IMG/VR virus record: IMGVR_UViG_2534681773_000025
From: a virus
Lineage: Duplodnaviria; Heunggongvirae; Uroviricota; Caudoviricetes
Length of the DNA stretch: 16,210 nucleotides
Strand: one strand, 5' to 3'
A model generated the notes under the pieces. It saw nothing but the letters and a program-made list of their open reading frames with translations. It did not search any database and was not told where the DNA came from. Shown one piece after another: positions 5,888-7,743 of the stretch. A program made the translations under genes and the position numbers. The number at the start of each line of letters is the position of its first letter. Position 1 is the stretch's first letter.

Positions 5888-5908
5888 AAAAAACCCGCCG
5901 AAGCGGGT
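5888..5908 (-). terminator. Rho-independent terminator with a UUCG tetraloop, copy B
   Basis: Minus strand: CCCGC-UUCG-GCGGG then UUUUUUGUUUUU, just 3' of the 368-aa gene. The 20-bp core aaaaacccgccgaagcgggt is identical to the copy at 7724..7743. Confidence 0.65.
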
Positions 5909-5912
5909 ATAC

Positions 5913-7019
5913 TCAAACAATCTGGAAAATATTTCTTGGATTTGTAATAGGTCTGTTGATGGAGAACAACTCACGAATTAAATCTTGGCTCAAGCCAGTT
6001 TTCATAAGAATTCTTAGCCAGGTTGCATCATCCAGCATTTCAATCGCCTCGGCCAGCATACCGGGTTCTTCAGGGCGCAAAAGTTCATCACCAGGTTCAA
6101 CTCTCGTATACCCTCTGGAATTAAGATGCATATAGCCAGTTCTTGCCTGTTCCTGGGTCAATAAGCCTAATGCGCTGGCTCGATAAATACACATTTTAAG
6201 GCTGATTTTCCATCTAAGTTTAAATTCAACCAGAGCATTCCAGTCGAATTGCTTACCTCGTATTCGTGGAAATTCTTTAATGAAAGATAACCTGGGAACT
6301 AATAAGGCGCTCGAAAAGTGATCGGCTTGTGATTCCGTAAGTTTATCACCTGTCGTTATGCCCTCATGCATTACTAAATGCCCTAATTCATGACCTAAAT
6401 CAGAGCGAAATCTACATATGCTTTTTTTAACATTGTTCCTGATGATAACAGGCCTGTTATTGTGAACAGTAAAAGCATCAACACGATCATCGACTCCCGT
6501 AACATGCGCAACGATTACCCCTAAACTCTCCGCCAATTTAACCATTGATGATATAGGGCCAAGACCTAAATTCCAGGCACGGCGACAATCTTCTGCCACT
6601 CGCTCAATATCATTCGGAGTAAGTAATTCAGCCCCTGGGTGCTCCGGTATGTTAACGTCAGGAAATTCGATTTCACCTTCAACAGCAGAAATTATAATAT
6701 TAAGAATCTCAGCCCTGGCCAATACACTATTAGTCAGCGTTTGAGTCCTGGACTTCTTACTCCGAAAATGGCAGACATCACTTTCCAGAGCGTATTTTCG
6801 TTCAGTAAAAAGAAAACTGGACTTAATCATAAGCGCTGAAGATATTAACTCAAGACATTGCTCCGATGGCCTGCACCCCTTCTCCAGTTTGCTAACGAAT
6901 TGCTTTGTCTTGCCAATTTTTTCGGCTAACTCTTCACAAGAAAGCCCAACAGCCATTCTCGCTAGTTTGAGCTTATCACCCCGATACTCAGTGAAGTTAT
7001 TCACCTGATGTTCCATCAC
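5913..7019 (-). CDS. XRE-family HTH fused to an ImmA/IrrE-type zinc metallopeptidase (HEXXH), with a ~100-aa C-terminal extension
   Basis: 368 aa. N-terminus LKLARMAVGLSCEELAEKIGKTKQFVSKLEKG is an XRE-type helix-turn-helix; the centre has LGHELGHLVMHEG (HExxH). Start is GTG 7019 or ATG 7016, overlapping the upstream ORF by about 20 bp. Confidence 0.8.
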   Translation of the reverse strand: MMEHQVNNFTEYRGDKLKLARMAVGLSCEELAEKIGKTKQFVSKLEKGCRPSEQCLELISSALMIKSSFLFTERKYALESDVCHFRSKKSRTQTLTNSVLARAEILNIIISAVEGEIEFPDVNIPEHPGAELLTPNDIERVAEDCRRAWNLGLGPISSMVKLAESLGVIVAHVTGVDDRVDAFTVHNNRPVIIRNNVKKSICRFRSDLGHELGHLVMHEGITTGDKLTESQADHFSSALLVPRLSFIKEFPRIRGKQFDWNALVEFKLRWKISLKMCIYRASALGLLTQEQARTGYMHLNSRGYTRVEPGDELLRPEEPGMLAEAIEMLDDATWLRILMKTGLSQDLIRELFSINRPITNPRNIFQIV

Positions 7020-7647
7020 TGCTCACATCCAAATCTTTATCCTTCGTACGCCGACGAAGAGGCACCTTATTAATCTCCGCTTCGTCAGGGAGTGTGTTAT
7101 AATCAAGAGGCATAAGCGGCATCGATGCTGTAGATTGATGAGAAACTATACTAATCTGAGCACCATAAGTATTAAATCCAACAAGAGCTACCTCCCAACG
7201 AGGCAGTGTGGACTCTAATTCACCATCGCCCTCTTCGGATAAAAAAGGCTCAGCTATGACTCGCCATGTAATATCTTGCTCAGCCTCAACATCACCAAAC
7301 AATGAGAGTTGCTCATACTCTACTTTATTTCGACGCAGACGATGTTTCTTTTTGGGGTTATTAATGCAATCTTTGGTAAATTGTAGCGGAACTTTATTTA
7401 AAGCAACTACATAGTCCAACCCCTTGGAAATCATCTCAAGGCCAGGAATTGCATCTTCATTTTGAATAAGATGATTTCTGACCCAATCATAAGCCCTTAC
7501 ACCTTCAGACCAGTTGCTGTCTAATGCGTGCTTATGATAGTACAGCTGCTCAAGTACGTTAGCGATCTCCGCCAACAAGTGGCGAACATAGTTTTCAGCA
7601 AGATAAGGTTGAAATTCCCAACAAGGAGCTAACTGATTTTCATTCAT
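6997..7647 (-). CDS. Hypothetical 216-aa protein with an acidic C-terminus, first gene of a two-gene operon with the HTH-peptidase
   Basis: ATG at 7647 with a weak ribosome-binding site; its stop overlaps the downstream start. No motif recognised. Confidence 0.55.
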   Translation of the reverse strand: MNENQLAPCWEFQPYLAENYVRHLLAEIANVLEQLYYHKHALDSNWSEGVRAYDWVRNHLIQNEDAIPGLEMISKGLDYVVALNKVPLQFTKDCINNPKKKHRLRRNKVEYEQLSLFGDVEAEQDITWRVIAEPFLSEEGDGELESTLPRWEVALVGFNTYGAQISIVSHQSTASMPLMPLDYNTLPDEAEINKVPLRRRTKDKDLDVSSDGTSGE

Positions 7648-7659
7648 TTCAAGTTTCGC

Positions 7660-7702
7660 TTTTTTTAGAATTCGTAAACCACATATTTTCGCATTTTTCT
7701 AT
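7660..7702 (-). promoter_or_regulatory. Candidate promoter for the 216-aa/HTH-peptidase operon
   Basis: A perfect TTGACA -35 hexamer on the minus strand (plus-strand 7697..7702), but only weak -10 candidates (AAATAT/TATGTG) at 17-20 bp. Confidence 0.3.
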
Positions 7703-7723
7703 TTTTGTCAACCAGACTAATGC

Positions 7724-7743
7724 AAAAACCCGCCGAAGCGGGT
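7724..7743 (-). terminator. Rho-independent terminator with a UUCG tetraloop, copy A (3' end of the hok transcript)
   Basis: Minus strand: CCCGC-UUCG-GCGGG then UUUUU. Same 20-bp sequence as 5888..5908. Confidence 0.6.

Follow-up and report, generated by a model that had tools for sequence, protein, structure and literature searches.

Fusions of an Xre-type helix-turn-helix domain to a COG2856 peptidase, encoded beside toxins, were predicted in 2009 (PMC2701414), and the RosmerTA family was named and listed in the preprint of Millman et al. (2022). In 2015 a toxin–antitoxin function was demonstrated for vmi480/vmi470, a homologue of the same subtype as the locus described here: Vmi480 kills Escherichia coli and is neutralized by Vmi470 (Luo et al., PMC4671572). 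Within RosmerTA, anti-phage activity is known only for the OLC-716 system and for that of Gordonia phage Kita, the toxins of which (a membrane protein in the case of Kita) are unrelated to the RmrT considered below. In other RosmerTA systems deletions of rmrA were unobtainable and the gene is essential, which implies that a toxic RmrT is neutralized by RmrA. Additionally, modules of the RosmerTA type render ClpX or ClpP essential in the strains that harbor them.

A further point of reference is provided by VapB52 from Mycobacterium tuberculosis, which cleaves itself on single-stranded DNA and thereby loses its N-terminal domain. A conserved FR motif near the peptidase active site is the proposed position of self-cleavage, and a four-helix C-terminal domain blocks the active site of the toxin (PMC13273310).

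The gene pair described here belongs to the RosmerTA family, which is already listed in defence-system catalogues. The preliminary description of this DNA had pointed out the joining of a helix-turn-helix and a peptidase in one polypeptide. Its reading of the locus, as an autonomous two-gene cassette in which a peptidase fusion responsive to infection or damage is paired with an effector, was supported in each part that the sequence could address. The novelty was overstated, because the architecture had been predicted in 2009, demonstrated as a functional pair in 2015, and named and catalogued as RosmerTA. A literature search on the two RefSeq accessions, WP_001004956.1 and WP_000401168.1, returned nothing.

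Organization of the cassette

The features of the cassette are listed in Table 1, in the coordinates of the window, namely the whole stretch of 16,210 nucleotides that was analyzed. As had been described, the two genes occupy overlapping frames; they lie on the minus strand (7647-6997 and 7016-5913), with an overlap of 20 nt. The second gene ends at 5913 and starts at the ATG at 7016 or, alternatively, at the GTG at 7019; its product thus contains 367 or 368 residues, and the overlap becomes 23 nt with the GTG start. As expected for a RosmerTA operon, the partner genes are adjacent and co-oriented, with one promoter-like site on the 5′ side and one terminator on the 3′ side.

Table 1. Coordinates of the cassette features within the window
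Feature	Position	Strand	Remarks
Cassette's own terminator	5883..5908	-	Terminator scan and repeat; ACCCGC-TTCG-GCGGGT followed by a T run; hairpin 5908-5893
rmrA, predicted antitoxin/sensor	5913..7016	-	RefSeq WP_000401168.1; 367 aa; HTH, M78/IrrE zinc peptidase and C-terminal domain
Candidate toxin-occluding C-terminal domain of RmrA (residues 283-367)	5916..6170	-	85 aa; conserved in the RmrA alignment; occluding role putative
M78/IrrE peptidase core of RmrA, residues 177-282	6171..6488	-	Pfam Peptidase_M78, 6e-11, above the gathering score
Phe84-Arg85 "FR motif" of RmrA, candidate self-cleavage site	6762..6767	-	HTH-peptidase linker; cleavage in RmrA putative
XRE-type helix-turn-helix of RmrA, residues 17-63	6828..6968	-	Pfam HTH_3, 5e-7, above the gathering score
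rmrT, predicted toxin/effector	6997..7647	-	RefSeq WP_001004956.1; 216 aa, acidic; PADLOC RmrT, phrog_5786
Promoter and candidate operator region	7674..7712	-	Sequence and conservation between cassettes; promoter/operator function putative
Upstream terminator hairpin	7727..7744	-	Terminator scan; AACCCGC-TTCG-GCGGGTT followed by a T run; 3′ end of the hok/sok locus

Two copies of a UUCG-loop terminator flank the cassette, in agreement with the preliminary description, and both TTCG-loop hairpins are enclosed by an exact 20-nt direct repeat, the downstream copy of which lies at 5889-5908 and the upstream copy at 7724-7743. The upstream terminator is also present in empty sites; indeed, the single copy in the empty-site strain C7 aligns to 7724-7743. 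A near-identical hairpin is positioned 3′ of rmrA in Enterobacter and metagenome homologues, the contexts of which are unrelated.

The claim that the cassette has a -35 element of its own likewise held: TTGACA lies at 7711-7706, overlapping a GTTGAC motif that begins at 7712. The -10 element is weak, being either AAATAT at a spacing of 17 nt (7688-7683) or TGn-GAAAAT at 15 nt (7690-7685). A second motif, GTTTAC, is found at 7679-7674, 33 nt from the GTTGAC motif. A scan for consensus promoters did not call the region upstream of the cassette genes, yet the exact TTGACA promoter region is conserved in homologous cassettes. As can be seen from the alignment of the E. coli, Enterobacter, Serratia, and metagenome cassettes, homology begins exactly at GGTTGACA, where the GTTGAC and GTTTAC motifs are invariant. 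Paired motifs of this type also occur in loci from Xenorhabdus and Vibrio.

Insertion site and distribution

The cassette is a 1835-bp insertion. Its removal in silico recreates a junction that is uninterrupted in 1869 of 5426 complete E. coli genomes, whereas 237 (∼4%) carry the cassette. The host element is an E. coli lambdoid prophage of the DicA/DicC type, and the insertion lies just downstream of the hok terminator. The placement between hok and the nin genes, as first proposed, needs one correction. The genes on the side away from hok are two small hypothetical ORFs, followed by those for DUF968, RusA, and a Q-like DUF1133 protein, and they represent the positional equivalent of the nin region rather than named nin genes.

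Close homologues in other prophages reside in a nin region, between Q and the holin gene, or among tail genes, with the tape-measure gene on one side and the minor-tail gene on the other. At these other accessory-gene sites they retain the same promoter, and a similar terminator is present in three of the five loci. The cassette has defined boundaries and a variable, multi-site distribution, as opposed to that of a core regulator; most prophage sites that are otherwise identical lack it. It is also absent from the GenBank phage collection, searched at both the DNA and the protein level.

Even for distant RmrT homologues, the next gene invariably encodes a helix-turn-helix/M78 protein of 361-377 residues and either overlaps or lies 5 bp away, and the two genes are co-conserved down to 18-25% identity. 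The pairing of the RmrT and RmrA gene families is obligate.

RmrT, the predicted toxin

Both proteins are members of the RosmerTA families as defined by curated profile models. RmrT matches PADLOC model PDLC03929 (4.6e-25) over nearly its full length, and it matches phrog_5786 with a value of 8e-85. All 60 aligned members of its family match the same PADLOC model. The suggestion that the 216-residue protein might be an effector partner is borne out to the extent that it falls into a catalogued toxin family. The protein is acidic, as reported, with a pI of 4.9 and 35 Asp and Glu residues versus 22 Lys and Arg residues. That the reading frame is a real gene under strong purifying selection, a point on which the preliminary description had made its proposal depend, follows from the dN/dS values of 0.05-0.07 obtained against homologues that are 83-84% identical. 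Frameshifted copies of rmrT are present in genomes (P0013 and P0014), as would be expected for the decay of a toxin gene.

Profile and structure searches, which had been recommended for this protein, were productive only with respect to PADLOC and PHROG. A Pfam search revealed no family at E values up to 1, and a sequence search of the PDB was empty. The AF2 model is confident (pLDDT 87, pTM 0.77), but Foldseek found nothing significant for it in the PDB or BFVD. A PIN domain, which defines the VapC toxin of VapBC52, was not found in RmrT by either the Pfam or the PDB search. The conserved residues in the family are D43, E110, R129, and E133.

RmrA, the predicted antitoxin

RmrA matches PADLOC model PDLC03943 (6e-105) over nearly its full length, to residue 351, and phrog_2439 (8e-123). 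The fusion of an XRE-type helix-turn-helix with a HELGH zinc peptidase, as originally described, is supported by the Pfam matches given in Table 1, and it places both domains, the latter of the M78/COG2856 type with an HExxH signature, in a single protein of the ∼360-400 residues typical of RosmerTA antitoxins. The PDB matches of the helix-turn-helix are SinR and the 434 repressor. The additional C-terminal domain is indeed present, although it is shorter than the ∼100 residues first given.

The HELGH signature comprises residues 209-213 (6378-6392), and the third zinc ligand is E228 (6333-6335). H209, E210, H213, and E228 are invariant in 10 RmrA homologues, and the peptidase core aligns to the active sites of CapP and VapB52. 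The peptidase identity assigned earlier was thus upheld, and the catalytic residues are intact.

With its three domains and an FR motif at the helix-turn-helix/peptidase junction, RmrA conforms to the published description of the VapBC52-type antitoxin. F84-R85 is invariant in 10 of 10 RmrA sequences that are 29-92% identical. This invariant motif in the linker, as in VapB52, suggests that RmrA may undergo trigger-induced self-cleavage at that position. Note, however, that there is no cysteine between H213 and E228, that is, in the loop from HExxH to the third zinc ligand, and that a profile alignment shows the RmrA family to be missing an insertion of 10-14 residues found in CapP and VapB52. 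CapP and VapB52 use this "cysteine switch" insertion for control by single-stranded DNA, and the trigger of RmrA may therefore differ.

Proposed function and alternative explanations

The cassette is probably a toxin–antitoxin module of the RosmerTA type, subtype vmi480/vmi470, and represents a self-contained accessory insert, a "moron" equipped with a promoter and a terminator of its own. Its proposed mode of action is as follows. RmrT would be a soluble, acidic, growth-arresting toxin that RmrA would bind and neutralize via its helix-turn-helix and C-terminal domains. RmrA probably also represses its own promoter. The M78 peptidase would be switched on when a phage infects or DNA is damaged, and would cut RmrA at the FR motif of the linker, thus freeing RmrT and aborting the infection. 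In uninfected cells host ClpXP, which is implicated by the published genetics on other RosmerTA systems, probably helps to clear RmrT.

It is conceivable, albeit quite unlikely, that this RmrT subtype is the first member of an uncharacterized class of enzymatic toxins, with an alpha/beta core that faintly resembles restriction endonucleases, lacks PD-(D/E)xK, and carries the D43/E110/R129/E133 cluster. The module would then operate as a guard circuit in which FR-motif self-cleavage of RmrA and turnover by ClpXP silence the toxin, and which is tripped by phages that make single-stranded DNA or disturb host proteolysis.

A rival explanation, judged somewhat unlikely, is that addiction (post-segregational killing) is the main function, in which case the module would stabilize itself or the prophage without contributing to defence against phages. 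The cassette adjoins hok/sok, which is a classical addiction locus; rmrA is essential in all carriers of the system; and the proven homologue vmi480/vmi470, which lies on a mobilizable island, has been characterized solely with regard to its toxin–antitoxin activity (PMC4671572). The RosmerTA systems known to protect against phages have toxins outside of this RmrT family. Nevertheless, protection against phages is conferred by other RosmerTA subtypes and by VapBC52, which is alike in architecture, and homologues are found in contexts resembling defence islands, such as that in Vibrio beside a reverse transcriptase and an AAA ATPase. Addiction and defence are, in any case, not mutually exclusive. 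A reversal of polarity, with the helix-turn-helix/peptidase protein being toxic and the acidic 216-residue protein serving as its inhibitor, would follow the example of PD-lambda-2, in which the Xre-peptidase alone is toxic when overexpressed and the upstream gene rescues; moreover, Makarova et al. first listed COG2856 as a predicted toxin. It is very unlikely here, given that in vmi480/vmi470, of the same subtype, the upstream 198-residue protein is lethal and the helix-turn-helix/peptidase is the antidote, that rmrA rather than rmrT is undeletable or essential, and that rmrT is the gene with frameshifted copies.

The combination of a helix-turn-helix and an M78 peptidase is also that of ImmR/ImmA, DdrO/IrrE, and CapH/CapP, and PADLOC gives weaker matches to capP (1.6e-14) and capH (1.5e-4). 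That the fusion protein regulates the prophage as a switch like ImmR/ImmA or CapH/CapP, controlling induction or the neighboring genes and accompanied by rmrT as an unrelated passenger, is nonetheless very unlikely. An immunity region of the prophage itself (DicA/DicC) lies ∼8 kb away, terminators bracket the cassette, and the same site is devoid of it in most prophages. Furthermore, rmrT and rmrA move as a unit, which in other phages is found among the tail genes or the lysis genes, and their co-conservation at low identity argues against a passenger. The interpretation of the locus as a RosmerTA toxin–antitoxin module is accordingly retained.

In RefSeq the two proteins are labeled "hypothetical protein" and "helix-turn-helix domain-containing protein" or "ImmA/IrrE family metallo-endopeptidase". 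The main value of this analysis is thus one of annotation, in that a RosmerTA toxin–antitoxin/defence module is identified in ∼4% of complete E. coli genomes. A delimited cassette of 1.8 kb in a tractable host provides a convenient test case both for the activity of the RmrT toxin family and for infection sensing by a peptidase antitoxin devoid of the cysteine-switch loop. Its clean insertion junctions exemplify the movement of such cassettes among phage genomes.

Comparison with known systems

CapH/CapP, ImmR/ImmA, and DdrO/IrrE share with RmrA the XRE-type helix-turn-helix and the M78/IrrE metallopeptidase chemistry, and CapP (7t5t) is the best sequence match of solved structure to the peptidase core (2.7e-9). 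Whereas those systems usually comprise two proteins and relieve the repression of a separate operon, the domains of RmrA are fused, the cassette is closed by terminators, the output is a co-encoded predicted toxin, and the cysteine-switch loop is missing. The arrangement of separate repressor and protease genes upstream of a controlled operon, as in CapH/CapP and ImmR/ImmA, was not observed, and the neighboring genes vary between genomes.

VapBC52 (Rv2514c/Rv2515c, PDB 9vzy) has an antitoxin composed of a helix-turn-helix, an IrrE-type peptidase, and a helical C-terminal domain, as in RmrA. The RmrA profile matches 9vzy at 5.5e-8, and the FR motif at the helix-turn-helix/peptidase junction is conserved in both antitoxins. 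The two systems differ in that VapB52 contains the cysteine-switch insertion and in that its toxin is a PIN-domain tRNase, whereas RmrT matches neither PIN nor any other Pfam family.

The verified OLC-716 RosmerTA system of E. coli is likewise a two-gene operon with the toxin first and an antitoxin of ∼370 residues containing an XRE helix-turn-helix and a zinc peptidase. Its RmrA is 29% identical to that described here over 301 residues (2e-35), but the two RmrT proteins show no relationship by BLAST (E value of 7) or by family hhalign (0.3% probability). The OLC-716 pair maps to the parallel models PDLC03935/03949, as opposed to PDLC03929/03943.

For comparison with vmi480/vmi470 of MGIVmi1 from Vibrio mimicus, a locus (L017) was employed that fits the published description, with genes for 198 and 362 residues, a 5-bp spacer, and, ∼500 bp upstream, a stretch of 24 nt, found by a genome scan, that matches the published AcaCD box exactly. 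Another 198-residue protein (P0053) was rejected as Vmi480, its relatives being from Nitrospirae and Desulfobaccales. L017 fits the description but is distinct from the actual V. mimicus sequence. Identity to its proteins is 47% for RmrA (3e-124) and 27% for RmrT (3e-16), and both L017 proteins fall into the PADLOC models of the present pair. The vmi480/vmi470 genes are separated by 5 bp rather than overlapping by 20 nt, and they are located on an IncA/C-mobilizable island rather than in a lambdoid prophage. A related locus from Vibrio fluvialis (L016), in which the AcaCD box of MGIVmi1 was looked for and is absent, has a promoter with the same TTGACA/GTTTAC pair as the cassette. As judged through the description-matched locus, vmi480/vmi470 and the cassette agree in the PADLOC subtype of both genes, in gene order, and in protein sizes.

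Organization of the cassette

Immediately upstream of the cassette lie hok (Pfam HOK_GEF) and the sok RNA (Rfam, 114 bits), and following it, in order, are two small ORFs, DUF968, RusA, and a Q-like DUF1133 protein. The preliminary description had placed the cassette between hok and the nin genes. The hok side of that placement holds, but named nin genes are absent, the downstream genes being the equivalent of the nin region. ORF1 (rmrT, the predicted toxin) and ORF2 (rmrA, the predicted antitoxin) overlap by 20 nt. Both flanking hairpins are situated within an exact 20-nt direct repeat, over which the terminator belonging to the cassette is identical to the one at the 3' end of hok. 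The ORFs, hairpins, repeat, and TTGACA element thus confirm the overlapping, terminator-bracketed gene pair originally described. No promoter was called at the TTGACA by a consensus scan.

Coordinates of features in the window
Feature	Position	Strand	Remarks
ORF1 (rmrT)	7647..6997	minus	216 aa, pI 4.9, 35 acidic versus 22 basic residues
ORF2 (rmrA)	7016 to 5913	minus	367 aa; ATG, RefSeq start; alternative GTG at 7019
Terminator hairpins, TTCG loops	7744-7727 and 5908-5893	minus	terminator scan
20-nt direct repeat	5889-5908 and 7724-7743
TTGACA	7711-7706	minus	weak -10 partner
TT(G/T)AC(A/G)AA-like motif	7674-7712		2-3 copies around promoter
RmrT tail	6997-7120		residues about 175-216
RmrA, HExxH to third zinc ligand	6333-6392		residues 209-228
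Second accessory block	8699-11286		between hok and replication genes
IS3-family element	11564-12837		between SMEK and DUF977 genes
IS3 transposase HTH ORF	12837-12427
IS3 rve integrase ORF	12469-11564
STnc100, tRNA, and methyltransferase genes	976-1492, 1533-2591		downstream of Q-like gene

A GTTGAC/GTTTAC pair, spaced 31-33 nt apart, flanks the core promoter in the Enterobacterales, Xenorhabdus, and Vibrio cassettes and may represent the RmrA operator. The TT(G/T)AC(A/G)AA-like motif, one copy of which coincides with the -35 element, is found 2-3 times near the promoter in RosmerTA cassettes of this subtype, including the upstream regions of loci L008, L016, L003, and L006.

The antitoxin

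ORF2 contains HTH_3 (residues 17-63) and Peptidase_M78 (residues 177-282) domains, both above the Pfam gathering score, with the HELGH motif at residues 209-213. The proposed fusion of an XRE-type helix-turn-helix to an ImmA/IrrE metallopeptidase is thereby borne out. PADLOC identifies ORF2 as RmrA (PDLC03943, 6e-105); 13 other RmrA models score lower, and capP/capH are weaker yet. Across ten aligned RmrA sequences of 29-92% identity, H209, E210, H213, and E228 are invariant, as are F84 and R85 in the linker after the HTH. The profile of this alignment matches CapP (7t5t, 2.7e-9) and the structure 9vzy from the VapBC52 study (5.5e-8). Only 14 residues separate the HExxH motif from the third zinc ligand, and profile comparison detected in RmrA no counterpart of the 10-14-residue cysteine-switch loop that CapP and VapB52 possess. 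Note that the short loop in RmrA carries an invariant His217.

The toxin

Searches with the 216-aa ORF1 protein, regarded in the preliminary description as uncharacterized, revealed a match to the PADLOC RmrT model (PDLC03929, 4.6e-25), with residues 7-209 covering profile positions 5-195 of 198. No Pfam family was found. When 1.84 billion representatives were searched exhaustively with a profile, 69 relatives emerged, nearly all 190-225 aa in length, and all 60 of the aligned full-length family members match PDLC03929. The named sources are Aeromonas, Vibrio, Pseudomonas, Photobacterium, and Enterobacterales, together with environmental lineages, and every one is annotated as hypothetical. 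Measured against homologues of 83-84% identity, dN/dS is 0.05-0.07, which marks ORF1 as a genuine gene.

The AlphaFold2 model of RmrT, calculated with the 60-sequence alignment as input, is confident (pLDDT 87, pTM 0.77). The predicted fold begins with two long helices, followed by a three-stranded sheet, short helices, a second three-stranded sheet, and a tail of ∼40 residues modeled at lower confidence without regular secondary structure. Foldseek returned nothing significant for it in the PDB or BFVD. The conserved polar residues of the family, D43, E110, Q113, R129, and E133, do not form a canonical nuclease motif. Within the tail there is a family-conserved pattern (hydrophobic-E-hydrophobic, P, and a basic cluster), which could serve RmrA or ClpX as a site of docking or cleavage.

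In some copies the toxin gene is frameshifted or truncated (the family proteins P0013, from Salmonella Sanjuan, and P0014), and in one E. coli genome an IS5 is annotated inside the matched interval spanning the cassette (hit H22, NZ_CP069459). These disruptions would fit the decay of a toxic gene.

Distribution and insertion

Downstream of distant RmrT homologues (roughly 17-25% identical to the RmrT of the cassette, or without a BLAST alignment) there is always an HTH_3 plus Peptidase_M78 gene of 361-377 aa, which overlaps the toxin gene or sits 5 bp away, in unrelated surroundings. Close homologues occupy differing accessory-gene sites of temperate phages: between replication genes and DUF968/RusA in Enterobacter, in the nin region in Xenorhabdus, between Q and holin in Serratia, and between tape-measure and minor-tail genes in a metagenome contig. 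Distant members of the module adjoin further defence or toxin–antitoxin genes: a reverse transcriptase and an SMC/AAA ATPase in Vibrio fluvialis (L016, 6883-10111), and a HigB-toxin pair in an environmental bacterium (L003, 3163-3820).

Homology between cassettes starts exactly at GGTTGACA and, in three of five loci, stops after a hairpin like AACCCGC-TTCG-GCGGGTTTTT. A near-identical hairpin accompanies the cassette in unrelated phage contexts (L013 and L009, each at about 6750-6775). The cassette, an autonomous and mobile unit, is variable rather than core, being carried by 237 of 5426 complete E. coli genomes, and a construct lacking the 1835 bp matches 1869 genomes as one uninterrupted piece. 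One hairpin is observed at the empty site of the E. coli strain C7, and the window has one at each junction; the cassette thus seems to have entered by recombination within a short terminator sequence that it has in common with hok.

Other features of the window

The IS3 element probably accounts for the ∼1.3 kb of the window absent from the otherwise 100% identical NZ_CP077479. The second accessory block contains a plus-strand pair, a 235-aa protein without a family and a class I SAM methyltransferase, along with a 299-aa SMEK-domain protein whose N-terminus matches the PADLOC Argonaute-associated REase-PNTD model (1.4e-20); it may be another defence-type cargo. The STnc100 sRNA (138 bits in Rfam) is accompanied by three tRNA genes, annotated as Ile, Arg, and Arg in the corresponding RefSeq record, and by an orphan N6/N4 DNA methyltransferase (PADLOC MTase_II, 5e-165), a set typical of Stx-type lambdoid prophages.

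Comparison with known systems

The name RosmerTA comes from Millman et al. (2022 preprint), who applied it to a Zn-peptidase antitoxin paired with a toxin of unknown function; an rmrA deletion was not obtainable. By every feature testable here, the cassette is a RosmerTA member. The verified system of E. coli OLC-716 falls in a parallel model pair, PDLC03935/03949. Its RmrA is 29% identical to that of the cassette, and its RmrT shows no relationship by BLAST (E 7) or hhalign (0.3% probability). The cassette therefore represents a different, already catalogued, subtype.

The antitoxin VapB52 is composed of an HTH, an IrrE-peptidase, and a C-terminal domain that occludes the toxin active site. 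In response to ssDNA it cuts itself and sheds the N-terminal domain, the cut being proposed to fall at a conserved FR motif where the HTH meets the peptidase. The toxin is presumably released in this way, and VapBC52 protects against a mycobacteriophage (PMC13273310). The likeness, marked by the invariant FR in the RmrA linker, is in the probable way of working. By analogy, RmrA would follow the same logic, whereby triggered self-cleavage would free RmrT. The cassette does not belong to the VapBC52 group, however, because RmrT is not a PIN protein and RmrA lacks the cysteine switch that VapB52 and CapP share. Published genetics link ClpXP with RosmerTA-type modules, whether of this subtype or of others: a prophage module of this kind makes clpP indispensable in E. 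coli E101, degradation of the SP_1810 toxin of S. pneumoniae needs ClpX, and in Pectobacteriaceae clpX is essential only in strains with RosmerTA.

An HTH–COG2856 fusion adjoining a toxin was predicted in 2009 (PMC2701414), and CapH–CapP fusions are also on record. Luo et al. (PMC4671572) showed that Vibrio mimicus vmi480 (198 aa) kills E. coli and that it is neutralised by vmi470, a 362-aa protein with HTH and Zn-peptidase domains encoded 5 bp away; an AcaCD box upstream of vmi480 was published by Carraro et al. A genome scan found two loci with 24 nt of this box. One of the two, L017, shows the expected arrangement, with the box preceding a 198-aa ORF by ∼500 bp, then a 5-bp spacer and a 362-aa ORF, and, on the opposite side of the box, a divergent 195-aa ORF. 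This locus is from Ningiella, not V. mimicus, and is equated with vmi480/vmi470 by its fit to the published description; its proteins are 47% (RmrA, 3e-124) and 27% (RmrT, 3e-16) identical to those of the cassette and are assigned to the same models, PDLC03943/PDLC03929. The overall interpretation in the preliminary description is supported, though the family and its subtype models were already catalogued and a homologue had already been proven.
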